DNA of 64,000 bases from positions 32,001 to 96,000 of IMG/VR virus record IMGVR_UViG_3300033141_003979; one strand, written 5' to 3'. This document shows positions 1 through 32,869 of the stretch, piece after piece (the stretch's first letter is position 1; each line of letters begins with the position of its first letter). Below the pieces are notes generated by a model. That model worked only from the letters and a program-made list of their open reading frames with translations. It ran no database searches and was not told where the DNA came from. The position numbers were made by a program, and so were the translations under genes. The stretch comes from a virus.

Positions 1-899
1 TTTGACCAAGAATTTCCTTTCCACATCTTCTGTGAATAGTCCCTTGCCTTCCTTACATCCTTCCCCCTCAAAGGATAAGGAAATCCAAAGTCTCCACCTT
101 GAGTTCTAAACATATGAGCAAACCAAGTATTCTTGTTTATTACCTGCCTGCCACCGCTAAGCCAACTTTTGCATGAAATTTCTGTCCCCATCTGACCCCA
201 AGAACCATGCCCTTCATCTAAACCCCCCAGATCCCAGTAGCGTTCTCTGTGCATCATCCAGCAGGCGCCTATTGCAGTCATCTGATCAGTGATCTTCCCT
301 TTAGCCCAATCCCTACGGGAGTGAGAGTACTTGTGCTTGATTGCAGGCATGTCTTTTCCATACTTTGATAAGTGATTCCTGTCAAAGTAAGAAAATTTCA
401 TATCCTTATCAAACCACATATAATCTGACTTCCTCCCCTTGCGGCGTTGCCAGATCATGATCATTTCAAATCCAGTTTGACTTTCACACTTGCTGCATTG
501 AGTTGGCTTTGGTCCCTGGTAAGTTTTATTCCCACATGACTGACATTTCCAATCAAAAGCGTGTAGATTATACATGCGGGGAACCATTGTCCAATCATAC
601 TTACAAGCAGTTATAAGCTTAACATCAAAGCCCTTGTCAAAGGCACAATGGGCATCACACTTCATAATGAACTTGGCCTGTGACAGTTTGGCGGCCTCAT
701 TCGTCGCTGCCCTCTGACCTATCGATTCCCCATGATAAATCAATTTCACTCTTGGATGATCCTTGACAGCCGGCTTAGGCCAACTACCATCACAAACAGA
801 GATGACTTCTGTATTACCCTCGACATTTTCAAGGATGTTCTCAATAGTTTGGGCTAAGAACATTTCATTTCGACTAGGGATAAGCACTGAGAGATCCAT
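1..899 (-). CDS. GT2-family glycosyltransferase with Zn-ribbon insertion (partial, runs off the left edge; not in ORF track)
   Basis: Hand translation from ATG at 899 gives MDLSVLIPSRNEMFLAQTIENILEN...KFIMKCDAHCAFDKGFDVKL. It is a paralog of the N-domain of 3320..5314 and contains WKCQSCGNK...TQCSKCES. Confidence 0.85.
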   Translation of the reverse strand, partial: MDLSVLIPSRNEMFLAQTIENILENVEGNTEVISVCDGSWPKPAVKDHPRVKLIYHGESIGQRAATNEAAKLSQAKFIMKCDAHCAFDKGFDVKLITACKYDWTMVPRMYNLHAFDWKCQSCGNKTYQGPKPTQCSKCESQTGFEMIMIWQRRKGRKSDYMWFDKDMKFSYFDRNHLSKYGKDMPAIKHKYSHSRRDWAKGKITDQMTAIGACWMMHRERYWDLGGLDEGHGSWGQMGTEISCKSWLSGGRQVINKNTWFAHMFRTQGGDFGFPYPLRGKDVRKARDYSQKMWKGNSWS

Positions 900-1009
900 T
901 ATCTATATTCTATATCCTTTTTCAAGAGAACTCCTGTTAGAATTGATGTCAGGCAGTTTAAATAGGGTATTTAAAGGGTATCTTAAAGTGTTTTCCATAT
1001 TTTATCTCC

Positions 1010-1294
1010 CTAATTGATAGTCACTTCTTTTTCTTCCGTAACAACCCAATCCTCTCCAGCGATGTCGCCGGTGGAAACAATCAAGGGGTGAAACTTTTTG
1101 TCCTCTTCCTTATAAACCATCAATTGATTGTCCATGATGGCAAACCTTGCATTTCTTTCTTCCCACTCTAGTCGTCTGACATGCCTGCCTTTCAATACTT
1201 CATTCATTGCATCCCCAAAATTCATCTGCGGTATCTCAGGAATATCCGCTGCCGTAGGTGACTGTTTGCCACCAGTGTTGTCTCTTTCATTCAT
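1010..1294 (-). CDS. DUF2829 / Tad2-like protein
   Basis: MNFGDAMNEVLKGRHVRRLEW...STGDIAGEDW matches the DUF2829 pattern MxFxxAxxxxKxGxxVxRxxW...SxxDxxAxDW. Confidence 0.65.
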   Translation of the reverse strand: MNERDNTGGKQSPTAADIPEIPQMNFGDAMNEVLKGRHVRRLEWEERNARFAIMDNQLMVYKEEDKKFHPLIVSTGDIAGEDWVVTEEKEVTIN

Positions 1295-1311
1295 CTCTCT
1301 TTTCCTCCTGT

Positions 1312-1911
1312 TTAAAATTCATACCCTAGTAATTCAACGTCCTTACGGTAAACATTATATACAATATCTATACACTCGTCATCGTAGTAATCACGGTATG
1401 GTCCATGTTGAGAACGGTTCTTGTGAGGAAGAACTGGACTGCAATCTATTGCAGAAGCTATTATCTCCCAATCTTTTTTTATGTTTTCTATCCTTGCCAC
1501 AAAATCAACAAAAACTTGTCCTTTGAAATAAACCCTTGGATACTGATGCTCAAAATGCGGATCACATAAAATCCCTTTATCACAAAAGGTAGTTTTCATA
1601 AAATGTTGAAAAGTCTCTCCTTTGCCAATGCATGGCCTGCCCGCTTGCTGCAAAGCATAAAAGGCTGATACCATCCTGTCCCAAGGATTTCTAACAATAG
1701 TAAATTTGAATATCTTATTGACATCAGTAATAGCCAATCTATAAGTCCATAAATTCCGACAATCTCTATAAGTCATTGCCCTGAGTTTTAACAAATCCCT
1801 GTAGACAGAATGGAGGCAACACTTACGAATACCAAAAAATATGAACTTCCCTTCAGTATCAAGAACCACGGGATGCAATTGTCTAATGTGTTTTAGAAGA
1901 GTTTTCATCAA
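1312..1911 (-). CDS. Sulfotransferase family 2 protein
   Basis: FTIVRNPWDRMVSAF (3'-PB motif), VDFVARIENIKKDW and a C-terminal YRDYYD...YRKDVELLGYEF. The 5'-PSB loop is divergent (IRKCCLHSV). Confidence 0.8.
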   Translation of the reverse strand: MMKTLLKHIRQLHPVVLDTEGKFIFFGIRKCCLHSVYRDLLKLRAMTYRDCRNLWTYRLAITDVNKIFKFTIVRNPWDRMVSAFYALQQAGRPCIGKGETFQHFMKTTFCDKGILCDPHFEHQYPRVYFKGQVFVDFVARIENIKKDWEIIASAIDCSPVLPHKNRSQHGPYRDYYDDECIDIVYNVYRKDVELLGYEF

Positions 1912-1936
1912 ATTCTATTAATTAGCCTTATATTTT

Positions 1937-2587
1937 TTACAAACATAACTCATCAAATAACTTTTCTGCTTTTCCCCATAATTGCAATCTATTAAATCTC
2001 TCTCTCATGCCATGCATATAAGGATGCAACCCATCATCATGATCAACACTAATTACAAAATATTTAGTTCTAAAAACTCCAAATCCAAAAGATCTAAAAG
2101 GAATTGGGGGACATCTCAAATTTTCTGTATCAATCCACATTGGCCTGTTAGCCATTATCTTATCTAAGATTTTAAGCAAATATTCACGGTTTGATATTAT
2201 TGCACCAACAAATCCCGCACGCTTTCTAGCAAAGATCGGAATTCTTGAATCAAACATACATACTCTTCTATTATAGTACACTGTATTTTGCTCCCTGTTA
2301 TAAGGGCGAAATTGAAAATGTTCTTTGGGATATAATGAATCCGCCTCTGCAAATGCAACATAAGGAGTATCTGCGTTTTCTACTCCAATAAATATCTGCC
2401 TAAATATATTATGGCTAGATCGCCCTACATCTCCAACACAAATATTTTTCCCGAAACTTAACTCTTTCTGTGATACAGATATAAGAGGTAACTCTTCAAT
2501 AACTAACAAAAGATTTTTTCTGATTTTTTCTGCAAAAGATTCCTTTTCCTTATTGGCCGTATAATAAATAATAGTAAGATCTCTCAT
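1937..2587 (-). CDS. GT-A-fold glycosyltransferase-like protein
   Basis: N-terminal LTIIYYT strand, a DxD-like YVAFAEADSLYP motif, and glycosyltransferase neighbours. Confidence 0.55.
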   Translation of the reverse strand: MRDLTIIYYTANKEKESFAEKIRKNLLLVIEELPLISVSQKELSFGKNICVGDVGRSSHNIFRQIFIGVENADTPYVAFAEADSLYPKEHFQFRPYNREQNTVYYNRRVCMFDSRIPIFARKRAGFVGAIISNREYLLKILDKIMANRPMWIDTENLRCPPIPFRSFGFGVFRTKYFVISVDHDDGLHPYMHGMRERFNRLQLWGKAEKLFDELCL

Positions 2588-2610
2588 ATTCTTATTTTAA
2601 CAAAAAGCTA

Positions 2611-3315
2611 TCACCTTGGACAAATTGAACAATAATCATATTTGTTTCTTCCGCCAGGCATTGACAAATCTTTTACGAATTTAATGTGCTTTTTGCCAAA
2701 CCAATATTGTCTTAAATCAATTTCCGGGAAAGACCCAAACCCAGAAATACCATTAAGATCCTCACAACATAAACAATACCGACCCTCATAATTTATTATT
2801 AATCTTTTTACAAGCGGTTGTTTGCATTTCAGATCATTTAATGATATTGCTTCTGGATGAAAATGAGTCTTTATATGCCATCCTTTTATCTGCACTTTGG
2901 TTTTTTTAAATAAAAATCTTACAGCATTTTTTTTATTATAAGGCCTTCTATCATAAAGAGAAATAATAATTTTATTCAATATCTTGTCCAACCTACCAGC
3001 CATTTCGTCAGTTAAAAAATCTCCATTAGTCACCAGATATATAGTTTTAATCCCATTCTCTTTAAGTAATTTTATTATATCAACAATTCTTGGGTCCATC
3101 AAGGGTTCATTATAATGAGAAAGACAGACACTAGAATTAAAATCTAGTTCAATATATTGCTTTACAAACTCCTCAATCATCTCCATAGACATAAAATTTA
3201 GTTCAAACCGAGATTTAACTGCTTCCCTATCAAGGTAAGAATTTCTAATGCAGGTCGGGCAAAATCGATTACACATCGAACTCGTCTCTAAAACTATTAC
3301 AGGAGGCCTCTTCAT
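2611..3315 (-). CDS. Radical SAM protein with SPASM/twitch-like C-terminus
   Basis: CNRFCPTC (CxxxCxxC), NEPLMD, TNGDFL, and a Cys-rich tail (CLCCED...CSICP). Confidence 0.85.
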   Translation of the reverse strand: MKRPPVIVLETSSMCNRFCPTCIRNSYLDREAVKSRFELNFMSMEMIEEFVKQYIELDFNSSVCLSHYNEPLMDPRIVDIIKLLKENGIKTIYLVTNGDFLTDEMAGRLDKILNKIIISLYDRRPYNKKNAVRFLFKKTKVQIKGWHIKTHFHPEAISLNDLKCKQPLVKRLIINYEGRYCLCCEDLNGISGFGSFPEIDLRQYWFGKKHIKFVKDLSMPGGRNKYDYCSICPR

Positions 3316-3319
3316 TCTC

Positions 3320-5314
3320 TTATTTCTTTACCCAAAAAAATGATGGAGAAGATTCATCTGTCACAAATAAATCCTTAATCCCATGAACCCGCACATAAAT
3401 ATTTACTGCATCAACAACACCTCCAACAGCTCCTCTAGTTGAAACCCAATTAAAATAATCATGCCCTGAAATTATCCCTCCTATACGAACCTTCTTTGAC
3501 CATTCAATAAGATCTTGCATTACATAATCAAATGTATGATTCCCATCAATATAAACAAAATCAAGTGATTCTGGTTCTACTTCTTTGATAGCATCCATAC
3601 TTTTCTTTACAATAAATTGAACATCATAAGGTTTAAGTATTTTCTTAGCATGATTATAAAAAGAATTATGGTTTACATCAGAAATTTCAACTTCATCTTC
3701 TCCATAACTAATATATGGATCAACAAGTTTTAATGATAAACCCGGAATATGTTTGCATATTGCTAATGCATTTATCCCACGCTTCACCCCTATTTCTGCT
3801 CCGTACTTAAATCCAAGTTCATTAAACAATGAATACAAATATCTTCTTCTATACTTCCTCACCTTTATTGGTGATATTGCCTTCCTTGATATACTACCTC
3901 GCTTTCTAAAAATAAATCGTAAATTATTCTCTCCCTCTGCCATCCCCCAATGCCGTTCAGTATCCATTACAATCCTCTCTAACCAGTGAACTTTGTATTT
4001 TTCATCAAGCACCGCCTTAATAAAAAAGAAATCTCCTGCATTTTGACGACCAAAACTTTTAATATGTTTTTGAAATACTTCATTCGAAACACAGATATTT
4101 CCACAAGCAATCCTCCCTCCAACAGGAATATGGGTTTCCCAAACATCTTTTTTTGGGTAAATAACATTTTTTATCAACTTCTTAACCATAACAACATCAA
4201 CATGAGAAGCTGATACAAGTTCTTTAACTGAAGCTACAAAATCTTTGTCTATTATGACAGAATCGTCATCTACTAAATAAACATACCTCCCTTTAACTTT
4301 GCTTCGATTAACATAAAATTGTTTATTCGCCCATCCAATACCTCTCCCTATATCATCTACTATAAATATGTGTTCAAAATCTTTATCTGTTTGAGCATTA
4401 ATAGAATCAATGCATTTCTGTAATGCTTTAGGTCTCTTGTAACATCTTGTAACAAAAGACATAAATGGAATTTCGGGAGCTTGTTTTTGTTCTGCCTGTT
4501 TATTTATATCTTTCACCATTGTATTCTCCCAAGAAGGCACCGGAGCAAATTTATCTACCAACCACTGTAAGGAGTGTTTATATCCATGACTATTTCCCGA
4601 CCAAAACTTCAAAGCAAACTCCGCAGATTTTCGCTTCTCCCCCCTGACATCTCTATAAAGTCCCGTGTCCTTCGCCCAATGGGCATACCAAGTATTGCGA
4701 TTGAGCACATACCGGCCACCAGAAAGCCAAGTCTTCAAACATACTTCCTGAGCTTCTTTGCCCATCGCCCCGTAGTTGACTTCATCCAATCCTCCAAGTT
4801 CCCAAAACCTTTCTCTATGCATGAACCAACAGGAGCCTTGAGAGGTCATCAAATCAACTATTGTCTGTCCTACTACCCGATCAGCATATTCATGCCAGTC
4901 CTTTCCTTTAAGATCCGTCTGCCTGATATACTGAAACTCATAACTTTTGTCTTCTCTTTCCCATAATTTAACATTCAATCTATATCTAACCGGAACTACA
5001 GTCCAATCATATTCACAGTTTTCAATTAACTTTATATCAAATCCCTCATCAAAAGAACAATGAGCATCACATTTCATCAAATACTTGCCCTTAGCAATCC
5101 TTGCCCCGGCATTTATCGCTTGTCGCATTCCTTCTGTTTCAGAGAAATGGACTAATGTAACATTCGGGAAGTCTCTTACCGGCGGATCAGGCCAGTAGCC
5201 ATCCAACATAACAATAACTTCAACAGCTCCTTTGGCCTTAACCAAAAGATCATCAATTGTCCTTTGCAAATATGGATCATTCCGCGCCGGTATTATGACA
5301 GACGTTATTTCCAT
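3320..5314 (-). CDS. Tri-domain GT2-GT-class I SAM methyltransferase fusion
   Basis: TSVIIPARND...KCDAHC (GT2), a second GT-A domain with YLVDDD, and a C-terminal GAEIGVKRG...DFVYIDGNHTFDYV...GGIISGHDY (Methyltransf_24-like). Start set at ATG 5314 (TAATG overlap). Confidence 0.85.
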   Translation of the reverse strand: MEITSVIIPARNDPYLQRTIDDLLVKAKGAVEVIVMLDGYWPDPPVRDFPNVTLVHFSETEGMRQAINAGARIAKGKYLMKCDAHCSFDEGFDIKLIENCEYDWTVVPVRYRLNVKLWEREDKSYEFQYIRQTDLKGKDWHEYADRVVGQTIVDLMTSQGSCWFMHRERFWELGGLDEVNYGAMGKEAQEVCLKTWLSGGRYVLNRNTWYAHWAKDTGLYRDVRGEKRKSAEFALKFWSGNSHGYKHSLQWLVDKFAPVPSWENTMVKDINKQAEQKQAPEIPFMSFVTRCYKRPKALQKCIDSINAQTDKDFEHIFIVDDIGRGIGWANKQFYVNRSKVKGRYVYLVDDDSVIIDKDFVASVKELVSASHVDVVMVKKLIKNVIYPKKDVWETHIPVGGRIACGNICVSNEVFQKHIKSFGRQNAGDFFFIKAVLDEKYKVHWLERIVMDTERHWGMAEGENNLRFIFRKRGSISRKAISPIKVRKYRRRYLYSLFNELGFKYGAEIGVKRGINALAICKHIPGLSLKLVDPYISYGEDEVEISDVNHNSFYNHAKKILKPYDVQFIVKKSMDAIKEVEPESLDFVYIDGNHTFDYVMQDLIEWSKKVRIGGIISGHDYFNWVSTRGAVGGVVDAVNIYVRVHGIKDLFVTDESSPSFFWVKK

Positions 5315-5613
5315 TATCTCCACTTCGGATGTACGGTAAAATTTATAGTCCTGCAAAGCCCCTTAAAACCACCATCTGGAAACTCAAAGTACCCCTGAAC
5401 ATAATATTCCCCTGCAACATCCAGATCACCGGCCCCTGTAACATATCTCAAATACTTTTCTTCATATACTGTAGAAGCCCATTCTACTTCAACCCCATTC
5501 TTGAGAACTTTCATTGAATAAACAGTGGCAGTATCAAGGGTAACATCTGCATTTACCTTTATTGTTATTTCGACATTTTCATCATCTACATATATTCTGT
5601 CATCAATATTCAT
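5314..5613 (-). CDS. Small virion protein, BppU-N-like beta domain
   Basis: YVTGAGDLDVAGEYYVQ motif typical of BppU-like adaptor domains; translationally coupled at both ends. Confidence 0.5.
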   Translation of the reverse strand: MNIDDRIYVDDENVEITIKVNADVTLDTATVYSMKVLKNGVEVEWASTVYEEKYLRYVTGAGDLDVAGEYYVQGYFEFPDGGFKGLCRTINFTVHPKWR

Positions 5614-7166
5614 ATTCCCCTCGATTCAAGAGCCATTCCTATTTCAAAGGACATACTTGTTTTCAAAGAAGTTTCCAAACTTATACTCTTCAATATTCCC
5701 ATCGACGGCGATGGCGATGCAGATATTGAAGGGCTCACTGAAGCTGAAATTGAAGTGCTCGGACTCAGTGATGGCGATAAACTCGGTGATAAACTCTGTG
5801 AAACCGAAGGACTCACACTTAACGATATGCTTGCTGATGGAGAAATTGAAGCTGAGATTGATGCCGAAAGGCTCGGGCTCAAACTTGCTGATGGGCTAAT
5901 TGATGGACTAATTGACAGGCTCACCGATGGAGACAGACTTGCCGATGGACTGATACTTGGGCTGATACTTGGGCTGATACTTGGAGAAATACTTGGACTC
6001 AACGACGCCGAAGGTGAAATCGACGGGCTCAGGCTCTGTGAAATACTTAGTGATATACTTGGGCTCTCTGAAGCAGACGGACTCACTGATGCTGATAGAG
6101 ACAAGCTTATTGACAGACTTATGCTTGGAGAAATGCTTGCCGAAGAGCTGACAGACGGCGAAATTGATAAGCTGATTGAAGGGCTGATTGATAGTGAAAT
6201 AGATGGTGAAATTGATGGGCTAACAGATGGGGAAACGCTAGCAGATAAACTTGACGAAATGGATGAACTTAAACTAGCAGACGGTGACGGCGATGCAGAT
6301 ATTGAAGGGCTCAATGAAGCTGAAGGACTAACAGAAGACGATGGAGATGGAGAAATCGAAGGACTAATTGATGGTGACAAACTTGCTGATGGGCTAATAG
6401 ACGCCGAGATCGATGGACTGATTGAAAGACTGATTGAAGGTGATATGCTTGGGCTCGCTGATGAAGAAATTGATGAAGAAATTGATGGACTAACAGAAGC
6501 CGAAATTGATGGACTGATCGACGGGCTTATGCTCGCCGACGGGCTAACAGATGGGGAAACTGATAGTGAAATGCTTGGACTAATTGAAGGCGATGGAGTA
6601 TGCAATTCCATAGTCCAATCATCTATATCCAACTGAATATCATCAATACCAATAATAAGAGTTTCTAGGTTTTCATCAGAGTTGGTAATACCAGGCTGAA
6701 GTGCTTTAGGTATTCTTGTTGCTGTAACCAATGGTCCAATTTCCTCGATTGTATTTCCCTCAGCATTAAATTCAGCAACAAGATTAGGAATATCATATTT
6801 ATTTTCTAAGCGATACCATGTATTTTCATTAATAGTAAACGTAGAAGTAACATGAAAGTCCCCGCCTTCGGCGTCATCATAAAACTCAGATCTAAGCTTG
6901 AATACCCCACCATCATTTTCACAAACAAAATAAGTTACAGGATCTCCATTTACATCAACTTGCTTGCCAAAATGAAAAGAGTTTCCTATACTGAGAACCC
7001 CAGTATAAAGCTTAAACTCCAAATACACATAAGATGTAAGTGTCGATACACGTATAGCTTGACGACTCCCAGCAGGCTCAGTTGCAGGCAAAGATATTTC
7101 TAAGTAATCTCCCCCCTGATTGCTTAATGGCGCAGTCCTGCAATTTGCATTGTAAGTAACAGCCAT
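5610..7166 (-). CDS. Putative virion protein: lectin/LamG-like N-domain plus ~300-aa Ser-Pro-Ser-X tract
   Basis: Beta-rich N-terminus (NTWYRLE...IIGIDDIQL), then [11 protein letters not shown] repeats. Start at ATG 7166 (TAATG overlap). Confidence 0.7.
   Translation of the reverse strand: MAVTYNANCRTAPLSNQGGDYLEISLPATEPAGSRQAIRVSTLTSYVYLEFKLYTGVLSIGNSFHFGKQVDVNGDPVTYFVCENDGGVFKLRSEFYDDAEGGDFHVTSTFTINENTWYRLENKYDIPNLVAEFNAEGNTIEEIGPLVTATRIPKALQPGITNSDENLETLIIGIDDIQLDIDDWTMELHTPSPSISPSISLSVSPSVSPSASISPSISPSISASVSPSISSSISSSASPSISPSISLSISPSISASISPSASLSPSISPSISPSPSSSVSPSASLSPSISASPSPSASLSSSISSSLSASVSPSVSPSISPSISLSISPSISLSISPSVSSSASISPSISLSISLSLSASVSPSASESPSISLSISQSLSPSISPSASLSPSISPSISPSISPSISPSASLSPSVSLSISPSISPSASLSPSLSASISASISPSASISLSVSPSVSQSLSPSLSPSLSPSTSISASVSPSISASPSPSMGILKSISLETSLKTSMSFEIGMALESRGI
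5700..6600 (-). repeat. Degenerate 12-nt-period coding repeat encoding (S-P/A/L-S-I/A/V/L)n
   Basis: Serine at every second residue; DNA units are synonymously diverged. Confidence 0.9.
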
Positions 7167-10100
7167 TATGGTATATCTTCCCAATAAGATTGATCTGTGT
7201 TATCACTATCCCAATCATCGTCAACCGCAGCATCGGGATCAAAAGTTTCACTAATGACGCGAGATTCAAAAGAAAAATCCATCGTCATTAGACCCATGAA
7301 CTCTGGATCTGGAGGTTCATCTGGAATCCCATCACTCTCAGTTGCATTATTAACAACAGCTCCAAGTCTTTCGCAAATCTCAACCTTCCATTTTTCTTCA
7401 CTATTTAGAATCTGAATATGAGCGAATGAAATCAAACGGATTGGATCTGATAAGTAATCATGATTCGCTGCCATGCCAGCATGATAATAGGACCGGTATC
7501 CACCAACCCTATACTGCCTACAACTAATAATCGAAGCATGTCTACCTAGTGGGGATGCACCAATATTAGGCCACCCATCATCTGCATGACTACCATCATC
7601 GAGGAACCCACAGTGACGATCACCTCCAAGTCCTATACCATTATGGGCTAACCATTGACGCACATTATACTCCCTAGCCGCACATCTCCGCCAAAAATCT
7701 GGCTTATAGATCTGAATAGTGGTTGATTCAGCAGGGATAACATCATCGACCTCTACTTTCTTTTCCCCAGCGTTCCAATACCAAACCTGTTCATTTCCAT
7801 CTATCTCATCTGCACTGAATACTTCCTCCATGACCGTTCTTGAAGCGGTGATAAGAGAGTTATCACGAGCTACAGCCCCAGGCTTTAAAGCACCCCCATC
7901 TGAATTCAAAAAGGGTTTGCGTGACCTCATCCTGGTGCCATCTACATCGTCAATGGCTTCCCATTGCGTATCCCCAACTCCTATTTCATCTAACAGTTCA
8001 ATCCAGAAACACATCCCGTCATAATCGCACCATTTATCACCCTGCCCGGCCTCTCCGTGAAAAATGGGTGTTTCTGATACAAGACAATAGTAATCAATAT
8101 TGGGGTCTGTTCGATCTGTAAATATATCTTCAACAAACGTCCTGAAGATATGACCTGCATTTATAGCCTCTTCTGGAGTACTATGTATTGAACTACCAGA
8201 TTCGTAGAAGTACATGAAGTGATTAGCCTCAACGGTATCATCATTACAAGTCTCCCAAGCAATTTTGACATAAGTATCTGTGACTTCTTCGACTAGAAAA
8301 TGCCCAACAACATCACCTTCACCATCAGCAGCCGTTCTAACCTCAACCATATCCCATCTATTGACAAAGGAAGTAAGGTCGCCTGTGTAGTTAAATATAT
8401 TATGAGTGTCAACAGAATCAATTTCCATTGAATCCTGATCATCTACTGTATTACCACCAACCAACGGCTTACTCAGTTGATTGATCACCAGCCCATAAGC
8501 AATAGTATCTAATTTACACCCCCCGAAAGTCCAATTTGGATCTCGCTTGTGGCGAATGTCAATAACGATAAACCTGATATTATCCATATCAAAGGTGTGG
8601 CAAAGTGAAGCTCGTTGAACAAGGTATCTAATATTTTCAGTTGTAGAGAAATCTTTTCCATCTGATAATGCTTGACAAAAATGGATAGTAGTTCCGCCTA
8701 TATATTTTACAAATGAATATTCACAAACAGACTCATCTGTTTCGTCCAAATACCTAATACATTGACCAGGATAAAGACCATACTTTGAAACTGTTGGAAA
8801 TCCGTAACTACCGTCTATTGTAGCCTCTGCGCTACTATCATCACCAATTACAACTTCATCATCTGACGGATAAGAGCCAGAAGTGTATTCAATTACAAGC
8901 TGATATGTACCTGTCCCATCCTGTCTTTCGTCGTGCAGTAATGTACCAACCCCATCTATCCCCCATGTCACGCCCTCTCCCTGTGTTAAATTCCCTGTAT
9001 AAGCATCATAAGTAATTTGAAACTCAGGTGGACTTGTATCAACTAAGGTAACATCAGATCCATCTGTATGTGCCCCCTCATAATTATTCCCCATATGAAG
9101 ATCTGGAAGCGGAGTCATTTCTTTGTAAACTCTCAGCGCAGTAGGAACCATATAAGCGTTTAAGGCATCGTCATAATTGCCACCACCTACACAATTAGCG
9201 TTATTTACAAGAAAATCATGGTCTGAAAATATATGGGCAGCAGGATACTTATTATATAATTCAAACTGTTGCCAGTAATTAGATAGCTGTGAACCTCGCC
9301 TTTCATAGACTATATTTCGTATAACTTGTGCTTCGTCTACAGTAGCTATCTCCGGCGATATACTCCATTCATCTCCAAGCTTCCAAACAAGATCAGGAGT
9401 TTTAGCAGACATTGAGGTAAAGACATTGTGGTCTTGCTCCTGGTGATGTTCGTCAGCACCAGCAGCAACAACCATGTCACTTCGAGTACCTGGAGCTTGG
9501 AATGTCTTACAACTTGGAAGAGTACTCCAGTAATAGGCACTTGCCCCACCCTCAAGTTCATACGCCGATTGCCAGCACCCATTCTTTTGTTCAACAAGAA
9601 TATCATAATAGTATGTTTTATTTGCAGTGAGACCTGTTATGGGAACGATTGCCGTGAAGTCTTTGGAATAGCCCTTTGGATCTGTAGCGGTTATTGCCGT
9701 GGCAGAACTTGTGTCGGTGTCTCCTGAATTGGTTTTTACGTCTCCCTCTACCGTACCATATCGTATTCTTACACTACTGGCTTCACTAATTCGTAGCCAT
9801 ATTCTAAGTTCTGTCGAAGACACACAGGCAACTAGCGGCTCATGTGTGACAAAGGCATCTCCTGTTGCCCCACTTATCACTTCTGCATAACAATCAGATA
9901 TTCTATATCCAGAAAAATCTTGCGCACTAGCTCGTATATATCCATAAGCTTCTTTTATTTGCGCCCACGACCAAGCACCATCCCCTTCTGGGTCATTTAC
10001 GGCAAGGAAATAAAAATCTGCCCATACCGCATCTCCAACTTCCCCTCCTGGACTGAACCCACTTGATTTCGGGGTGCTTGCTACTCCAAGACCTTCCTTG

Positions 10101-11998
10101 CGAATAAACGGCACACATTCGTAATGACTAGTATCATATTGCTGACCCCGCCAAAATACCCTTTTAGCTTTTGGGTCTCCCAATGTCTCATCAGGATCTT
10201 CAAAGGCAAGAAGCATTCCCGATCTGTCTGTAGAGTCGTCACTTTCTTTTTTAACTTCAACGAAGGTAAGATCACTGCTATCAGTCACAACCTCTAGTGC
10301 CCCTTCAGCATCGTCTATCCAATCGGCTGCCGTCTCCCACGTACCCGCAGCGATCATTACATTGTCTATATAAAGTTTTCGGGCGCTAACACCTAATTGT
10401 TGTAAGTTTGTAATAGAGCCACCAAAATAAAGTTTATCGAGGGTTTTTGATGCACCTTCATCCGCCTCCTGTACGGCTCCTACAACCCCATTATCCGTAA
10501 ATCGCCATCCGCAGGTGTTTGTCCCTTTACGATAAAACTCAACCCTATGCCATTCACCCGTAGCAAAAGCTACGTCGTTTCCTACTTGAACTCCATTATG
10601 TTCAAGATATATCTTCCCATCAATTGTGGTGATAACTTCTATATACTCAGAATCATCAGCGATGCGACACTGAAAAATTATTTTCTCATTATGTGTCGTT
10701 GCAAAATTGAGATAAAGCCGAAATGAACCAATTATATCAGCTGTATCAAAATTCCCATCATATTTCAGTCTTGAACGGGCTACAATGTCATCCTTATACT
10801 CAAACTCGCAGTATGTGCCAGAGCGTCCTCCGATACCAGAAGCATCTGCATCTATAGAAGAGTTAGAGCCTACGACAGAAGGAACATAAACAACATTTGA
10901 ATTGTCTGTATGTCCAGTAATATCTACGCCAGGGAGGAGGTTTATATCGGCTTCCTCAAAAGACTCCCTGAATATAATTTTATTCCCATTGGTAGGCACA
11001 TAGCCGGGGAGAACTCGTTCATCTGCTCCACCGCCAAGCCACTCGTTAGGTTCAAGAATTTGTTTTCTACAACCAAAGGTTACAAACGTTTTTCCACCAC
11101 CAGACATTATGGCTTCTTCATAAAAAGGTGAAGGACTCGGTGAAACACTAGGACTAAGTGATAGACTGATTGACGGGGATAGGCTTAGTGATATAGACGG
11201 ACTCAAACTTGCCGATGGACTAATTGATGGCGACATACTTGGTGAAATACTCAAACTAATTGATGAAGATATACTAGCTGACAGGCTCAATGACGGCGAT
11301 ATACTTGCACTAATTGATGGTGATATACTTGGACTTGGTGAACCTAGGAGGGCATTTAAGGCTATTTGATAGCCATGCCATTCTGCACCAGTAACATGCC
11401 CATCATAATCAACCGTACCAGAATACGTGTCTATATTTGCTTGTGCTTTAGATCCCATGCAGATATTACCATCCTGCCTGAATACTGCCTCGTGAGTTGT
11501 AGAGCCAGCCTCTACGGTTACATCGGCATCTGTAGCTGCTGCATTAGTCAACGCAGTAGCTACAATAATCAAAGTATCAGTTTCTGTTGTTGTTATATCA
11601 CTACATGTTGCAGTACCAGCAGCATCTATAGTATCATCGCTCTTCGCAGATGAAACATCAATAAGATCCCCTTGTCTTGTTCCTTCTATTCGGAGAATAG
11701 CCCCTCCCCAACCTCCTTGCCCACTCAAACCTGTCCAAGTATAGTTTGCCCCTTCACCTGAAGCACTAGTAATATACTTATAACAAATTACTGAAGATAA
11801 ATCTCTACCAGTAGTGGTATTCTGTTGATAGAGTTGTGTCCATCCTACCGGTATGCCAATTGCTGGAGTATCATCTCCCCTCGAAACACAGGCAATCAGT
11901 AAATCGTTGTCTTGCAGATCAGCAGGTTTATTTATAACAAAACTAGCGGCGGCAACAGTATCATTTTGTGTACTAGTTTTATATTCTGGAGATGCCAT
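7166..11998 (-). CDS. 1610-aa mosaic protein: N-terminal beta domain, Ser-Pro tract, LamG-like domain, PhoD-like metallophosphatase with insertions
   Basis: DFTAIVPITGLTANKTYYY (PhoD N-domain), PDLVWKLGD, IFSDHDFLVNN, FIVIDIRHKRD, GGDRHCG. Confidence 0.7.
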   Translation of the reverse strand: MASPEYKTSTQNDTVAAASFVINKPADLQDNDLLIACVSRGDDTPAIGIPVGWTQLYQQNTTTGRDLSSVICYKYITSASGEGANYTWTGLSGQGGWGGAILRIEGTRQGDLIDVSSAKSDDTIDAAGTATCSDITTTETDTLIIVATALTNAAATDADVTVEAGSTTHEAVFRQDGNICMGSKAQANIDTYSGTVDYDGHVTGAEWHGYQIALNALLGSPSPSISPSISASISPSLSLSASISSSISLSISPSMSPSISPSASLSPSISLSLSPSISLSLSPSVSPSPSPFYEEAIMSGGGKTFVTFGCRKQILEPNEWLGGGADERVLPGYVPTNGNKIIFRESFEEADINLLPGVDITGHTDNSNVVYVPSVVGSNSSIDADASGIGGRSGTYCEFEYKDDIVARSRLKYDGNFDTADIIGSFRLYLNFATTHNEKIIFQCRIADDSEYIEVITTIDGKIYLEHNGVQVGNDVAFATGEWHRVEFYRKGTNTCGWRFTDNGVVGAVQEADEGASKTLDKLYFGGSITNLQQLGVSARKLYIDNVMIAAGTWETAADWIDDAEGALEVVTDSSDLTFVEVKKESDDSTDRSGMLLAFEDPDETLGDPKAKRVFWRGQQYDTSHYECVPFIRKEGLGVASTPKSSGFSPGGEVGDAVWADFYFLAVNDPEGDGAWSWAQIKEAYGYIRASAQDFSGYRISDCYAEVISGATGDAFVTHEPLVACVSSTELRIWLRISEASSVRIRYGTVEGDVKTNSGDTDTSSATAITATDPKGYSKDFTAIVPITGLTANKTYYYDILVEQKNGCWQSAYELEGGASAYYWSTLPSCKTFQAPGTRSDMVVAAGADEHHQEQDHNVFTSMSAKTPDLVWKLGDEWSISPEIATVDEAQVIRNIVYERRGSQLSNYWQQFELYNKYPAAHIFSDHDFLVNNANCVGGGNYDDALNAYMVPTALRVYKEMTPLPDLHMGNNYEGAHTDGSDVTLVDTSPPEFQITYDAYTGNLTQGEGVTWGIDGVGTLLHDERQDGTGTYQLVIEYTSGSYPSDDEVVIGDDSSAEATIDGSYGFPTVSKYGLYPGQCIRYLDETDESVCEYSFVKYIGGTTIHFCQALSDGKDFSTTENIRYLVQRASLCHTFDMDNIRFIVIDIRHKRDPNWTFGGCKLDTIAYGLVINQLSKPLVGGNTVDDQDSMEIDSVDTHNIFNYTGDLTSFVNRWDMVEVRTAADGEGDVVGHFLVEEVTDTYVKIAWETCNDDTVEANHFMYFYESGSSIHSTPEEAINAGHIFRTFVEDIFTDRTDPNIDYYCLVSETPIFHGEAGQGDKWCDYDGMCFWIELLDEIGVGDTQWEAIDDVDGTRMRSRKPFLNSDGGALKPGAVARDNSLITASRTVMEEVFSADEIDGNEQVWYWNAGEKKVEVDDVIPAESTTIQIYKPDFWRRCAAREYNVRQWLAHNGIGLGGDRHCGFLDDGSHADDGWPNIGASPLGRHASIISCRQYRVGGYRSYYHAGMAANHDYLSDPIRLISFAHIQILNSEEKWKVEICERLGAVVNNATESDGIPDEPPDPEFMGLMTMDFSFESRVISETFDPDAAVDDDWDSDNTDQSYWEDIP
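11125..11345 (-). repeat. Ser-Pro-Ser-X coding repeat
   Basis: [21 protein letters not shown]... tract of about 70 aa. Confidence 0.9.
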
Positions 11999-12001
11999 TA
12001 G

Positions 12002-12415
12002 TTAATCATCCAAGCTAAGGTTGCAATCCCCAGCATCTAATATGAGTTGATCGTCTTCAGTAATTATAACACCGCCCGTAATAGTTCCCCCAATTAAAAA
12101 ATCCCCGTTACTAGGATCAGGATGGTTCCACAAACCAACATAAGGAATAGAAACCCCACCATTCCAATCCCCTCCAGCAGCTTGCGGAAAAGTAATTGCT
12201 GCCCCATTATCAGATGTTCCTGCTGCCCATGCGTTCCAATTTGCAGCAATCACCTGCACACGATCATAAGCATTTTCTTCAGTTATTTCATTTGAACCAT
12301 CATTTCCAGGTGTTGCTGAATGCAAAGCAATGTAGATGTCATCAGTTTCGAATCCATAATTAACTTTACCTAGTAAATGATTTAAAAATGCTTCCTGTAA
12401 ATATTCACCTAACAT
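12002..12415 (-). CDS. Conserved phage tail-fibre-associated small protein
   Basis: YLQEAFLNHL...IYIALHSATPG...NEIT...YDRV...AITFPQA...W...YVGLW pattern, common in phage structural modules. Confidence 0.65.
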   Translation of the reverse strand: MLGEYLQEAFLNHLLGKVNYGFETDDIYIALHSATPGNDGSNEITEENAYDRVQVIAANWNAWAAGTSDNGAAITFPQAAGGDWNGGVSIPYVGLWNHPDPSNGDFLIGGTITGGVIITEDDQLILDAGDCNLSLDD

Positions 12416-12424
12416 AGTATCCTC

Positions 12425-13564
12425 CTAACACCGTACCAATTCCATATCTGTTTCAAAAGCCATACTTGTTGTCAAAGACGATTCAAAAGCAATGATCTTC
12501 AATATCCTTGAAGTTGCCGGCGAAGGACTCGGCGAAGCCGACACGCTCAAGGATATTGAAGGGCTAATACTTAGCGAAATAGACGGGGAAATGCTCAGAG
12601 ATATTGATGTTGAAGGAGACAGAGAAATGCTTGCACTTGGCGATATGCTCGAACTTGGACTGACTGATGGGCTAATTGATAGACTGATACTAGGTGACAG
12701 GCTCAAGGAAATAGAAGCAGAAGGAGAGACCGAAGGGCTAATACTTAATGATATACTTGCTGATGGAGAAACCGAAGCAGATATTGATAAGCTTACCGAT
12801 GGAGAAATACTTGCACTCAAACTAGCAGACGGGCTTATACTTGCACTCGGACTGAGTGATGGAGAAACACTCGCACTAAACGATGCTGATGGAGAAATAC
12901 TTGCACTCGGACTCACAGACGGCGAAATGCTTGCGCTCAGACTTGCCGATGAAGAAACTGATGGACTGATTGATGCTGATGGACTGACCGAGGCAGAAAT
13001 ACTTGGTGAAATGCTTAGCGATATACTTGCCGATGGACTGATCGATGGACTAATACTTGCCGATGGAGAAATCGAAGGGCTTATGCTCAAACTTATGCTT
13101 GCGCTTAATGATGGAGATATACTAGCAGATGGAGATACTGAAGCTGATGGACTGATTCCGGTGATGCGTAATACCACATCCTGAACATATTCAATAGGGG
13201 CAGGACTCGGACTTGGTGATGGTGATGGGGATATTGAAAGGCTCACTGAAGCTGAAAGAGATGGAGAAAGACTTGCCGATGGGCTGATTGATGGACTAAT
13301 ACTTGGTGAAATACTAGGACTGATTGACGCCGAAATGCTCGGGCTAACACTTGAAGATATTGAAGGGCTGAGGCTTGCACTTGGTGAAATGCTTGCTGAA
13401 ATGCTTGGGCTGATTGATGGGCTCAAACTAGCTGACGGACTGATACCAGAGATACGTAATACAACATCCTGAACATACTCGGTTGTTGCTTCATCTCTCG
13501 GAATCCCTCTAGTTGGAACTCCACGTCCTGGTAACCCTCTTTTTGGTACTCCTCTAGTCCCCAT
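12425..13564 (-). CDS. Almost entirely Ser-Pro-Ser-X repeat protein
   Basis: RGxP N-terminal repeats, two [10 protein letters not shown][S/T]G motifs, and a C-terminus homologous to that of 5610..7166. Confidence 0.75.
12520..13445 (-). repeat. Ser-Pro-Ser-X coding repeat
   Basis: About 300 aa of alternating Ser. Confidence 0.9.
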
Positions 13565-13573
13565 ACTTAACCC

Positions 13574-15421
13574 TTATAAAGTAGAAGTCATTTTAACTTG
13601 AACATATCCCAAAGATACAAATGGTATAGTATAATTATTCCATCCAGCTCCTTCACAGGCTACTTTTGTTGCTCCGTGTCTATAATCCATATCCACGTCA
13701 TCCCCTGTAGGATCATAATTATTTTGCAATAATGTCACAGTAAAGGCGCCTGTGTTAACTACTTCAGACACCATATTTTCCCCTGCATTCAATTCAAGCC
13801 GTTCAGCATCACCAGCATTCGCTATTACCCCAGTCCCTGTCCAATGCCAAGCAAATGTACGTACATTTGTCTCAGTCACAGCTGTAACATGTCCCCAACA
13901 AGTATCCCCAGGTATTGCAGGTGAAGGAGATGGGGATATTGAAGGGCTAACTGAAGGCGATAAAGATGGACTCAATGACGGTGATATACTAGGTGAAATG
14001 CTCGGGCTGATTGAGGCTGAAGGACTATATGATGCAGAGATACTTAGTGAAATGCTCAAGCTTATTGATGGGCTTATACTCGCACTTGGACTGATTGAAG
14101 GACTTAGGCTTGCACTCAGACTCGGCGATAAAGATGGTGAAATTGAAGCTGAAGGAGTAGATGGAGAATATGATGGGCTTATACTTGCCGATGGACTATA
14201 TGATGCCGATGGAGACGAAGAAATCGAAGCCGAAATCGAAGCCGAAGGGGTATCTGGTGATGGACTTGGTGATGGTGAAATCGATGGACTAATTGATGGT
14301 GAAATTGACAAACTAATTGATGGTGAAATGCTTGCAGATGGGCTTAATGATGGACTGATTGATGCCGACAATGACGGGCTTTCTTCCACAAACTCACTTG
14401 CCCCTACATCCCATCTAGCATCCGTACCAGCAGGCCTGGCATTTCCTTCTATACTAAAAGCATAAAGTGGATCAGGGGTAGTAAAGAAATTCATAGGGTT
14501 CCATGTGCCAGAAACATCATTAACTGGCGACATGCCGCAATTGCCCTCACCTAAATTATCGACACCATCCCTAGTAGATAGACTGGCCGTAGCTAAGTAA
14601 TCAGCATCTAGTGAGGCGTCCAAATCCAAACTGTTATCCCATGCAGTAGGAATTCCTCCAGCATCTAAGTCCGCTGTATCATCGTCAGCAGCGTTCCAAT
14701 CCGAAGGTACATCAATATCAACAGCAGGAAATACATCTCCCCCTATGTCCATTCCATAGCAACTAAAAATAATACCTGTGCCATCTGTTAGAGAAGAATA
14801 AAATCCTGCACCACAATCTGCCCCAGTACAACAAATACAGCCCATTGTATATCCTGCGGCCGGAGAGAATCTAAAAGCAAGATCCTCATGCCCATAGGAG
14901 ATACAAGCATAGGCCATACTGTCTTCACCAAACATCCGAAACCCCTGCGGATTTCCACCAGAAGAAACTCCATCATAGGCAATACAATGTATAAAAAACA
15001 CGAAGTCTGCGTCTTCACATCTGAAAATATGAGCACCTGTCGAACCAGTATAACTAGCACTTATTTTAACAATTCTACTATAGAAATCCTTAACTTCAAA
15101 AACAAAAACATTTGCTCCTGTATAAACAAACGTAGCTCCAGTTGCTACAGTACCAGCAAAAGGAGTAGCACAACTTGGTGAGGATTGAATCTTTCTATAG
15201 TGTGTTGCATCTACAATAGCATCTTGGAGTGCGACAGAATCATCATGTACTTGGCTATCATAGCAGTCGAGCACAAGAATACCAAGACCGGTGATATCTA
15301 CATCTGTATCAGCTTCCCAAGTGCCTAAAACACTATAATCTGGATCTCCAGCGCCAGGCAACGAACCGTTGCCTCCAGAATCATAGGTTCAAAGATATGG
15401 TGCTTGATCCCAACAAGCCAT
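13574..15421 (-). CDS. Putative virion protein (beta-helix-like domain plus Ser-Pro tract) with in-frame UGA at codon 11; candidate selenoprotein or readthrough product (615 aa)
   Basis: ATG 15421 overlaps the upstream stop (TAATG). Translation MACWDQAPYL*TYDSGGNGSLPGAGDPDY is in frame with the track ORF 13574..15361, which starts at TTG. Confidence 0.65.
13915..14380 (-). repeat. Ser-Pro-Ser-X coding repeat
   Basis: About 150 aa of alternating Ser. Confidence 0.9.
15333..15391 (-). promoter_or_regulatory. UGA plus SECIS-like stem-loop
   Basis: UGA (15391-15389), 14 nt, then AGGCAAC-GGUUC-GUUGCCU (15374-15356). A lower helix CUAUGAU-UCUGG / CCAGAUUAUAG is possible. Confidence 0.55.
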
Positions 15422-16119
15422 TAGCTAATAAGCCCCTTTTTTGGTTCTAACATATTCAGCCCATCAAAAGCGCTAACAATGCGACCCTTAAGTTTATCCC
15501 AGAAATCAGTCTTACCAAGAGATCTGGACACCGCAGGAGTATAAACATCGTGCCTGTCAAACATCCTTACGGTGTTGACCCCTAGTGTGTCTAAATCAGC
15601 AAGGGGCACACAGAACCTACGTTTTTTAATAATATCCGTTGGATTCGCACCAATATCCCACGATCCCGTTATATCGTAGTAAGGCTCGCATAAGGCTTCT
15701 ATCTTTGGACGATCTAAGTCGGTCACGGGGACAATTAAAAAATGCCTTCTTTCTAGATTGGTCCACCCATGACCCTCTGCTTTATGAGCAATAATATCTC
15801 CGGGTCGTGGCCTTTTGTCGGTCTTCATATCTTCGTGAACAGAATATAGGTTAGGGTCAAATCCTGTTGGATAATCAATACTTTTGCTAACAAGTTTATT
15901 TATAAGGACAGAACCAGCTTTAGCAATATCTGGCGTTAATTTGTTATAGGGGCCGTTCGCATAGCCTTTGCCATCAGCGCATGGAAAGTTCTTGTCGTAA
16001 TAATATGGCTCGCCATTCCAGCCATGAGCGACAACAGGGAAATGATCTGTCAGGCTTTTCTCCTTCATAAGATAACGATTTTTATAGTAAGCAAATAAAG
16101 CTAATTCAAAGTTAGCCAT
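15421..16119 (-). CDS. Hypothetical phage protein
   Basis: 232-aa ORF with a GAGAGGA RBS, inside the operon. Confidence 0.7.
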   Translation of the reverse strand: MANFELALFAYYKNRYLMKEKSLTDHFPVVAHGWNGEPYYYDKNFPCADGKGYANGPYNKLTPDIAKAGSVLINKLVSKSIDYPTGFDPNLYSVHEDMKTDKRPRPGDIIAHKAEGHGWTNLERRHFLIVPVTDLDRPKIEALCEPYYDITGSWDIGANPTDIIKKRRFCVPLADLDTLGVNTVRMFDRHDVYTPAVSRSLGKTDFWDKLKGRIVSAFDGLNMLEPKKGLIS

Positions 16120-21307: not shown

Positions 21308-21323
21308 CAGTTTTTTCAAATCT

Positions 21324-22700: not shown

Positions 22701-23141
22701 CTACTTAGCAAGTCCAGCCCTGATCTTTTCCGCTTCCTCTTCTGTCAATCCACTTTGAGCCACTTTGATAGAAATCCCCAATGCCCTGGCCTTTTTTATG
22801 ACTTTCTTAGAAGGTATCCCAAGCTCATCAGCCAACTGATAAACCCGCGTTACTGTGGAATTTTCCTCAAGGCTTTTACCACTTACAGCTTCTGCTTCTT
22901 CTTCCGTCTTAGCAGAAACGGTTCCAGCAACTTTATTTTCTGGTACATCCTTAACCATTTTATTCTCAGGAGCTTCTGGCTCTGCCTTTCTCACTCTGAC
23001 AATCTCGGCAACCCCCATGTGTCCTATGAAAGCCTTAGCAAGGTCTTCGGTCACATCATATTCTAGATCCTTCAAAAAATACGTGACAGTAAACCCGTCA
23101 AGGCTCCCTTTGTCATCTCGGAGCATTCTAATTCTAGGCAT
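22701..23141 (-). CDS. Neck-region protein with C-terminal IF-2 N-terminal-like domain
   Basis: APENKM motif typical of post-capsid small genes; TRVYQLADELGIPSKKVIKKARALGISIKVAQSGLTEEEAEKIR matches the IF2_N pattern. Confidence 0.7.
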   Translation of the reverse strand: MPRIRMLRDDKGSLDGFTVTYFLKDLEYDVTEDLAKAFIGHMGVAEIVRVRKAEPEAPENKMVKDVPENKVAGTVSAKTEEEAEAVSGKSLEENSTVTRVYQLADELGIPSKKVIKKARALGISIKVAQSGLTEEEAEKIRAGLAK

Positions 23142-28043: not shown

Positions 28044-28085
28044 AACCAAATCCTCCCTTTTCCAACTTACTATTAATTGATATGC

Positions 28086-32339: not shown

Positions 32340-32348
32340 TTTATTCTC

Positions 32349-32867: not shown

Positions 32868-32869
32868 TT

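Follow-up and report, generated by a model that had tools for sequence, protein, structure and literature searches.

A candidate phage-encoded mucin-like O-glycosylation module of GT27-like enzymes and (Ser-X)n proteins in a complete tailed-phage genome

Genomic Context

The window analysed here is a stretch of 64,000 nucleotides from IMG/VR virus record IMGVR_UViG_3300033141_003979, and toward its left end four genes for proteins with long (Ser-X)n tracts lie next to genes for glycosyltransferases (GTs), a methyltransferase and other candidate glycan enzymes. This group of genes, called the module below, may be a system for mucin-like protein O-glycosylation. The source contig is 109,770 bp in one piece and the window corresponds to its bases 32001-96000. 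The contig ends overlap by 35 bp, IMG/VR classes the record under direct terminal repeats, and CheckV gives a completeness of 100%. The virus is a tailed phage and its genome is complete. The head genes, for the small and large terminase, portal, SPP1 gp7-like head protein, protease, major capsid protein and head-tail connector, are located in the window on the minus strand. To the left of the window are tail-completion genes and a tail-sheath-like gene that is 57% identical to its homolog in the closest relative found (locus L007); the remaining tail-region open reading frames (ORFs) there were named from position and sequence alone.

The module fills about 22 kb between the head-completion block and the tail block of the late structural operon. 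In L007, whose tail proteins are 50-67% identical to those of this phage, the repeat proteins and GT genes likewise lie directly upstream of the first tail gene. The genes of the module abut or overlap, with gaps of -43 to 59 nt and one exception of 110 nt, and the stop codon of the last GT gene overlaps the first tail gene. Terminator-like sites number 8, against 10.7 expected from shuffling. The tight spacing and the lack of a terminator excess fit transcription of the module as a single message but do not prove it.

The (Ser-X)n Repeat Proteins

A regular expression for strict S-x runs, applied to every ORF of the complete contig, matched exactly four ORFs, all on the minus strand, with 812 tract residues in total. 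The initial annotation had described four late genes with serine at every second position over more than 800 residues; the coordinates were confirmed, and these are the only such ORFs in the genome. Repeat protein A (5610-7184) has 524 residues, consisting of a 197-residue N-terminal domain, a tract at residues 198-495 (298 residues) and a 29-residue C-terminal tail with three short strand-like repeats. Repeat protein B (7166-11998) is the largest, with 1610 residues, and has a 219-residue N-terminal domain, a short tract at residues 220-291 (72 residues) and a 1319-residue C-terminal body. Repeat protein C (12425-13564; 379 residues) has a short basic N-terminus and two tracts of 80 and 212 residues, each preceded by one shared short motif, and it ends in a tail like that of A. 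Repeat protein D (13574-15361; 595 residues) has a 327-residue N-terminal domain, tracts of 42, 30 and 78 residues (150 in all) and a 114-residue C-terminal domain that is 51% identical to the C-terminus of a repeat protein in another phage (L039). Gene D has a TTG start at 15361 with GGAGG about 10 nt upstream. An ATG that overlaps the upstream stop codon (TAATG) also opens the frame of D (15333-15421, minus strand), but an in-frame TGA follows ten codons on; given the GGAGG upstream of 15361, the ordinary TTG start explains the gene without read-through.

The tracts have been labelled (Ser-Pro-Ser-X)n before. SPSX is indeed the most frequent tetrad, but the invariant feature is (Ser-X)n. The X residue is Pro at 31-39% of positions, followed by Ile, Leu, Ala and Val, and Thr is nearly missing (3 of 812 residues). 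Pro at two successive X positions is depleted, with 3 cases observed in protein A and 14 expected. At about 7% Ser, the probability of twelve S-x dipeptides in a row is about 1e-14 per position, which excludes chance as the source of the runs. All six Ser codons are intermixed inside the tracts, and Tandem Repeats Finder reports short imperfect DNA repeats only. The pattern is therefore maintained at the protein level, and recent repeat expansion at the DNA level was rejected as the origin of the tracts. Plus-strand ORFs that run across them (e.g. 5755-6636) are antisense shadows.

Neither the four repeat proteins nor the enzymes of the module contain a 19-residue window of transmembrane hydrophobicity, an N-terminal hydrophobic segment or a signal peptide, which agrees with the earlier statement that the repeat proteins have no signal peptides. 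Since both enzymes and substrates are without hydrophobic segments, any modification would be cytoplasmic.

Glycosyltransferases of the Module

The nearly abutting enzyme genes had been assigned as a GT2-GT-methyltransferase fusion, a radical S-adenosylmethionine (SAM) enzyme, a GT-A protein, a sulfotransferase and another GT2. Pfam matches and predicted folds bear this out, with the refinement that both GT2 genes encode GT27-like enzymes. The first of these, GT27a, is the N-terminal part of a 678-residue GT27a-GT2-methyltransferase triple fusion (3320-5356, minus strand), in which Pfam recognizes two GT2 stretches and Methyltransf_24. Its true start is likely the ATG at 5314, which is coupled to the upstream stop codon. 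The second, GT27b, has 568 residues (contig 31193-32899, equal to L002:15193-16899; Pfam GT2). Its N-terminal 299 residues occupy 1-899 of the window on the minus strand and the gene continues past the left edge.

The N-terminal domains of the two enzymes are paralogs, and their best matches in the PDB are polypeptide N-acetylgalactosamine (GalNAc)-transferases. A phmmer search of the PDB with the triple fusion gave GalNAc-T10 as the best match (E 4.8e-7) with the DxH motif aligned, and the same search found no solved virus-encoded glycosyltransferases. When a five-sequence profile was used, the top 13 matches were all GT27 (best 7e-12), and the half of the domain that carries the candidate Gal/GalNAc-T motif was matched by GT27 entries only. 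In this half the segment (S)WGxxGxE...K.WLSGG aligns to the Gal/GalNAc-T motif (WGGE...), and it is degenerate in the GT27a paralog. The AlphaFold 2 model of GT27b has a predicted local distance difference test (pLDDT) score of 91.8, and polypeptide GalNAc-transferases take all of Foldseek ranks 1-42 at about 1e-14. D82-A83-H84-C85 and H211 are invariant in an alignment of 5 homologs (A1), and D82/H84 and H262 are invariant in an alignment of 40 sequences (A4). The DxH motif and the downstream His align to the D-S-H and G-H-I-Y-R residues of GalNAc-T10. Sequence profiles and the predicted structure thus indicate that the closest solved relatives of both paralogs are the polypeptide GalNAc-transferases of CAZy family GT27, at an identity of only 13-19%. 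The putative initiating enzymes resemble protein O-glycosyltransferases and not enzymes for DNA or lipopolysaccharide, which the initial annotation had named as the targets that would refute its reading.

GT27b combines its GT27-like catalytic domain with a C-terminal GT-A domain homologous to the product of 1937-2587 (E 4e-18), and this domain stands where GT27 enzymes have a ricin-type lectin domain, for which no Pfam match was found in the module enzymes. The GT27-like enzymes have no hydrophobic membrane anchor either, their highest 19-residue Kyte-Doolittle mean being 0.65-1.32. Since they have neither the lectin domain nor the membrane anchor of GT27, the enzymes are named GT27-like and not members of GT27. 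As a separate observation, most GT27-like members of the second type carry a zinc-ribbon-like CxxC...CxxC insertion in the catalytic domain (A1 columns ~118-145; for example residues 119-141 of L002:16000-16899), and those of the first type are without it.

The gene at 1937-2587 (minus strand) encodes a small GT-A protein of 216 residues that belongs to what is called here the 'IIYYT' family. It has no Pfam match, and a PDB profile search gave nothing significant. Its AlphaFold 2 model (pLDDT 91.9) has a GT-A fold, with Foldseek matches to the GT-A enzymes AvpGT, WrtF, SpsA and TarP at E values of about 5e-7, and E81 and D83 of its ExD motif are invariant in 53 sequences. The small GT-A protein is probably a glycan-elongating enzyme.

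Coupling of Tract and Enzyme in Other Viruses

A scan of IMG/VR with the enzyme alignment returned at least 446 stretches, of which the best 80, together with two added loci, form the set of 82 module loci used below. A tract was counted when a same-strand ORF contained at least 24 residues of strict (Ser-X)n. Such an ORF is present in 74 of the 82 viral loci, which span a GC content of 0.34-0.62, with tracts of 24-1460 residues and a median distance of 511 bp to the nearest enzyme ORF. Clustering of the enzyme at 70% identity leaves 62 clusters, and a tract is present in 56 of these. The eight loci without a tract all cover less than the full span of 20 kb; five are entire contigs, 6-13 kb in length. 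For a control set, a single-protein PseB query for loci with sugar genes gave no matches and a terminase alignment was used as the anchor instead; tract or enzyme was found in 0 of 80 control loci (1.10 Mb). The difference between 74/82 and 0/80 has a Fisher p of 2e-37, which is an upper bound on significance as the loci are phylogenetically related. The initial annotation had called for a comparison of repeats and GTs across viral contigs; the independent distribution that would have refuted its interpretation was not seen, and that interpretation is supported in its main points.

The reverse test started from a DNA pattern for Ser-Pro-Ser-hydrophobic and gave 80 loci, 47 with a real in-frame tract. 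The enzyme was found inside the short locus in 18 of these 47 and in none of the 33 loci without a tract. Searching the whole contig for some of the negatives added three more strong enzyme cases, and at least 20 of the 30 loci with tracts of 100 residues or longer contain the enzyme.

The non-repeat domains of the four proteins of this phage are found in only 0-1 of the 82 module loci. As these domains vary while GT27b, the small GT-A protein and the methyltransferase recur, the tract travels with the enzymes and is grafted onto many proteins. A tract that moves with the enzymes is the pattern expected if the tract is the acceptor.

Conserved Core and Accessory Enzymes

Homologs of GT27b-type enzymes and of the small GT-A protein are each present in 78 of the 82 module loci, the latter often in two or three copies, and the methyltransferase domain is present in 55. 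The middle GT2 domain of the triple fusion and the radical SAM enzyme are found in 0/82 loci, and a homolog of the sulfotransferase in 1/82. The conserved core thus consists of the two GT27-like enzymes, the small GT-A protein and the methyltransferase, to which this phage has added the radical SAM enzyme, the sulfotransferase and the middle GT2 domain. The initial annotation had placed the sulfotransferase and the radical SAM enzyme in the system; the comparison shows that they do not belong to its conserved part.

The sulfotransferase (1312-1911, minus strand) matches Pfam Sulfotransfer_2 at 2.9e-11 and a PHROG galactose-3-O-sulfotransferase at 5.9e-17. No adenosine 5'-phosphosulfate kinase was found in the phage genome, and sulfation as a general feature was rejected; with a homolog in a single locus, the word sulfated applies to this phage and is speculative. 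The small radical SAM/SPASM enzyme (2611-3315, minus strand; Pfam Radical_SAM 2e-11, SPASM weak) has at least 121 homologs of about 240 residues in metagenomes, and of 23 viral loci that contain the family just 2 also have the GT27 module. In one locus, L378, a tract protein, small GT-A protein, methyltransferase/sulfotransferase, radical SAM enzyme and GT27-like enzyme again occur together. In phages without the module, radical SAM/SPASM homologs lie directly upstream of portal genes (L369:412-2819 and L377:326-2687), which hints at a function of the family unrelated to glycans. The radical SAM enzyme was rejected as a conserved glycan enzyme on the basis of these counts and of its position beside portal genes elsewhere.

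Heads and Tails of the Tract Proteins

The 131 distinct tract proteins compared usually begin with an N-terminal domain of 130-500 residues, which is followed by the tract; they end there or in a tail of about 25-60 residues. The tails often consist of two or three tandem copies of an 8-11-residue strand-like motif that differs by lineage, and others are fibritin-foldon-like. Examples are encoded in the window at 5610-5700 and 12425-12515 and in L026, L036, L039, L051, L056 and L115. These tails may serve in trimerisation or docking.

Pfam does not recognise most of the 104 N-terminal domains that were scanned. Laminin_G_3 was found in ten, and CBM96, F5/8 type C, beta-helix and GDSL esterase domains were also found, so that by their domain assignments the Pfam-recognised heads of relatives are glycan-binding or glycan-cutting. 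The idea that the stalks carry lectin and enzyme domains thus finds support in relatives; for this phage there are leads only. These are weak matches to carbohydrate-binding modules for the N-terminal domain of A and a right-handed beta-helix for that of D. Protein B has weak DUF7800 and Pur_ac_phosph_N matches. A PDB sequence search with the C-terminal body of B and the N-terminal domain of D gave nothing significant.

Distribution Beyond Phages

Among species-representative prokaryote genomes there are 78 matches to the enzyme, all in metagenome bins and mostly in Candidate Phyla Radiation (CPR)/Patescibacteria and DPANN, with other bins labelled Gammaproteobacteria, Planctomycetota and others. 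A tract ORF lies downstream of the enzyme in 37 of the 78. A complete Woesebacteria chromosome, CP066693.1 (L350, 9986-16222), encodes a GT27-like enzyme, a methyltransferase and about 1200 residues of (Ser-X)n. The flanking genes are FnlA/B/C-type sugar genes, a carbamoyltransferase, TatC and ComM, and no phage genes lie within 10 kb. The tract protein has a Gly-rich start and no signal peptide, and its tract is divided among three ORFs, which may reflect misassembly of the repeat. Together, the CPR/DPANN matches and the Woesebacteria module make the system common to phages and ultra-small cells; it is encoded by phages, as first described, but is not confined to them. In an exhaustive profile search the GT27-like family comprises at least 456 clusters at 50% identity (E <= 1e-30). 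Full-text searches of the literature returned no account of a pairing of GT27-like enzymes and serine-repeat proteins, whether in phages or in Patescibacteria.

Neighbouring Genes and Other Observations

Three of the four remaining ORFs of the region, all on the minus strand, are small or have no assigned domain. One of 94 residues lies between GT27b and the sulfotransferase (1010-1294; from the ORF list) and another of 99 residues between the repeat genes and the GT genes (5314-5613), where L007 has a 47% identical ORF at the same position. Upstream of D is an ORF of 232 residues (15421-16119) with no Pfam match, whose homolog in L019 lies beside a homolog of the N-terminal domain of D. The fourth, between repeat proteins C and B, encodes a Gp80-like fibre subunit (12002-12415; Pfam PF23140 Gp80, podophage GP4 fibre I, 7.2e-21; phrog_240 2.6e-14). 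In GP4, gp80 is reported as a fibre monomer (PMC13730344).

The structural operon also encodes a 1726-residue protein (16139-21319, minus strand) with DUF5060 and a PQQ/BamB-like beta-propeller resembling carrageenase propellers. Its N-terminus is signal-peptide-like, with a 19-residue hydropathy of 2.07; a signal that looks cleavable is unusual in a structural gene of a phage. The protein may act as a glycan-degrading spike, or it may be secreted as an enzyme. In the head-tail region, the C-terminal part of a 146-residue ORF (22701-23141, minus strand) matches the N-terminal domain of translation initiation factor IF-2 (Pfam IF2_N, E 1.9e-14). Two paralogous ORFs with similar N-termini, L001:11173-12219 and contig 106680-107363, look like scattered free-standing homing endonucleases; the first, which is the one scanned, has a DUF559/restriction-endonuclease-like C-terminal domain.

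Left of the window, on the plus strand, L001:1240-16174 contains a near-complete pathway of the pseudaminic/legionaminic type together with a Maf/PseD-like transferase. The pathway genes encode a PseB-like dehydratase (2.5e-108), a DegT/PseC aminotransferase (1.7e-54), a GNAT protein, a NeuB/PseI-like synthase (8e-48) and a cytidylyltransferase (CTP_transf_3, 2.5e-21); PseG was not recognised among the ORFs scanned. The Maf-like transferase matches MptE-like (3.1e-43), Maf_flag10_N (7e-5) and PseD (8.9e-27) domains. A Gfo/Idh/MocA oxidoreductase and a BNR protein are also encoded in this region. After the pathway comes an ORF rich in tetratricopeptide repeats that opens with a Maf-like motif, and small ORFs and a DUF559-type nuclease are interleaved. 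The pathway belongs to a different module on the opposite strand, separated from the GT cluster by about 16 kb and from the repeat genes by more than 20 kb. Maf or NeuB occurs within 10 kb of the module in 0/82 loci, so the tract does not depend on them, and the Pse/Maf genes were rejected as part of the conserved module.

Comparison with Known Systems

Eukaryotic GT27 enzymes work in the lumen of the Golgi, possess a ricin-type lectin domain and generally prefer Thr. Mucin-type O-glycosylation initiated by GT27 is regarded as a trait of eukaryotes. Of all solved enzymes the phage proteins are nearest, by sequence and by fold, to the GT-A domain of this family (GalNAc-T1, T2, T4, T7, T10, T12, PGANT9 and Toxoplasma GalNAc-T3), and they share the DxH and downstream His of the Mn site; the segment that resembles the Gal/GalNAc-T motif (WGxxGxE...WLSGG) may be a further common trait. 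As in the mucin system, they are linked to long Ser/Pro-rich tandem tracts, here by being encoded beside them, and the two paralogs recall initiating and follow-up isoforms. They differ in that a second GT-A domain or a methyltransferase is fused in place of the lectin domain, in the lack of the type II membrane anchor, in their cytoplasmic location and in the candidate acceptor tracts, which are strictly Ser with next to no Thr.

The serine-rich repeat proteins (SRRPs) Fap1, GspB and SraP of Gram-positive bacteria are glycosylated inside the cell and form fibrillar adhesins with a ligand-binding region (PMC7948813, PMC6973325). The module resembles these systems in its very long serine-rich tracts, in GTs encoded next to the putative substrate and in what would be a stepwise extension by GT-A enzymes. 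Unlike them, it has a GT27-like initiator and lies in a phage structural operon, and it has no GT4 GtfA/B, SecA2/SecY2, long signal peptide or cell-wall anchor. PF00534 (GT4; GtfA/GtfB) had no match in the complete phage genome, with controls positive in 14/14 genomes, and no SecA domain was found in the phage. Membership in the SRRP/accessory Sec family, to which the repeats had been likened initially, was rejected for these reasons.

Among viruses, mycobacteriophages are reported to carry glycans on the C-termini of capsid and tail-tube subunits, added by phage GTs in the cytoplasm (Freeman et al. 2023, via the summary in PMC12619734). Here too phage-encoded GTs are proposed to modify the structural proteins of the phage itself in the cytoplasm, a proposal that comes from the genes alone. 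The candidate acceptors are different, however, being separate fibre-like proteins with tracts of hundreds of residues, and the enzymes are of another family; the major capsid protein (26577-28049) has no (Ser-X)n tract. The triple fusion recalls A064R of chlorovirus PBCV-1, which is likewise a soluble virus-encoded GT-GT-methyltransferase fusion of about 640-680 residues, presumed to decorate a virion protein with methylated sugar. A064R has two glycosyltransferase domains and a methyltransferase and builds the capsid glycan. The PBCV-1 glycans, in contrast, are N-linked on the capsid protein and the host is eukaryotic. The Maf flagellin systems are matched by MptE-like and Maf N-terminal domains and a near-complete CMP-nonulosonate pathway in one genome, but no flagellin is encoded here and Maf genes are unlinked to the module in other phages.

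Proposed Mechanism and Alternatives

The reading favoured here, with moderate confidence, is that the module is a phage-encoded, cytoplasmic, mucin-like protein O-glycosylation system in the late structural operon that builds glycan-covered stalks. The four soluble proteins would offer their long (Ser-X)n tracts as substrates, and the two soluble GT27-like paralogs, using the DxH...H metal site, would put the first sugar on the tract serines. The glycan could then be extended by the small 'IIYYT' GT-A enzymes, one free-standing and one fused to GT27b, and in this phage by the extra GT2 domain as well, and the fused SAM methyltransferase may O-methylate it. In this phage alone, the sulfotransferase and the radical SAM enzyme may add further steps, and the Maf-like O-transferase may cap the same proteins with pseudaminic/legionaminic-type sugars or modify them directly. 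The product would be extended stalks that hold variable glycan-binding or glycan-cutting N-terminal heads away from the particle and are fixed or trimerised through the short C-terminal tails. The parts of this proposal differ in strength. The genomic case for glycosylation of the tracts is strong and this part is likely; attachment to the virion is plausible and is leaned towards; sulfation, a radical SAM step and nonulosonate capping are possibilities specific to this phage that find no support in the comparison of loci. The analysis itself shows the gene content, the kinship of the enzymes, the conserved residues of the metal site, the solubility, the synteny and the statistical link between tract and enzyme. 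It is from these that we infer the role of the tracts as acceptors, the sugars used, the order in which the enzymes act and the place of the proteins in the virion.

Several observations weigh against this reading. The control loci were unmatched for gene content, and the kinship of the module loci makes the Fisher p overstate their independence. The coupling has an exception in L138, a complete viral contig of 42 kb whose 344-residue tract occurs without the enzyme. Co-occurrence gives the radical SAM enzyme and the sulfotransferase no support as glycan enzymes. The setting is also unlike that of GT27, with no lectin domain, cytoplasmic proteins and tracts that are almost free of Thr. A tblastn search of 50,697 GenBank phages with GT27b gave no match. 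Finally, the module on the Woesebacteria chromosome stands in an apparently cellular context, which means that virion attachment is not intrinsic to the system.

This last point bears on a first alternative, in which the repeat proteins are glycosylated but are not part of the virion. They would be released late or deposited on the infected cell or its surroundings and act, like the cellular fibres that CPR bacteria apparently build with this module, as adhesive or shielding fibres, in superinfection exclusion or as decoys. The cellular-context module of Woesebacteria and the many CPR and DPANN bins that carry the module would fit such a role, although genome bins can include mis-binned phage contigs. 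In this phage and its closest relative, however, the genes lie in the structural operon, between head-completion and tail genes and next to that of a Gp80-type fibre subunit, the proteins lack signal peptides, and many of them end in foldon-like or strand-repeat tails as virion fibres do; a role outside the virion is thus unlikely. It has also to be considered that the tracts are unmodified spacers, flexible or beta-structured, and that the GTs act on host envelope glycans, other virion proteins or DNA, the two sharing a 'fibre plus accessory' cassette. Low-complexity Ser/Pro linkers are common in modular carbohydrate-active proteins, the alternation of polar and hydrophobic residues could alone form a trimeric beta-fibre, and GT2-type GT-A enzymes often build polysaccharides. 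What makes this quite unlikely is that tract and enzyme stay coupled across unrelated phages despite varying attached domains. Among solved proteins the enzymes are moreover closest to protein O-GalNAc-transferases rather than to polysaccharide synthases or to enzymes that glycosylate DNA. They are soluble, without the membrane domains that envelope-glycan synthases have, and the genes belong to the late operon and not to an early DNA-modification module.

Maf enzymes are cytoplasmic Ser/Thr O-transferases, and PseB-like, PseC/DegT, GNAT, NeuB/PseI-like, cytidylyltransferase and Maf/PseD-like MptE functions are encoded in the same genome. The main modification of the tracts in this phage could thus be a nonulosonic acid of the pseudaminic/legionaminic type that the Maf-like enzyme attaches straight to Ser, as happens in flagellins, with the GT27-like module in a secondary role. 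This is very improbable in view of the missing Maf and NeuB genes within 10 kb of the module in all 82 loci. The pathway is also distant, on the opposite strand and in a different module, and it could equally act on host flagellin or surface glycans.

Going beyond the GT27-like module as proposed above, the decorated stalks could be a sialomucin mimic hundreds of residues long, with O-glycans at every second residue that are methylated, sulfated and, through Maf and the Pse/Leg pathway, capped with nonulosonate. The GT27-like clade of phages, CPR and DPANN could then be a prokaryotic sister group of the enzymes that initiate mucin-type glycosylation in eukaryotes, or their source. In this full form the idea is a speculative one and is considered unlikely.

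Significance

To our knowledge, glycosylated phage particles have so far been found in a few actinobacteriophages. The work described here ties a GT27-like enzyme family to (Ser-X)n proteins in phages and in ultra-small CPR/DPANN cells. The present genome is a rich example, a complete phage of 110 kb that combines four candidate substrates with a triple-fusion enzyme, a sulfotransferase and a pathway for sialic-acid-like sugars. If the proposed reading is true, many uncultivated phages would carry dense glycan brushes, which could control how particles adsorb to polysaccharide matrices, act as a shield and influence their behaviour as colloids. The enzymes would then also be soluble, bacterial-type tools for making mucin-like glycoproteins in the cytoplasm, and they bear on the origin of eukaryotic mucin glycosylation.

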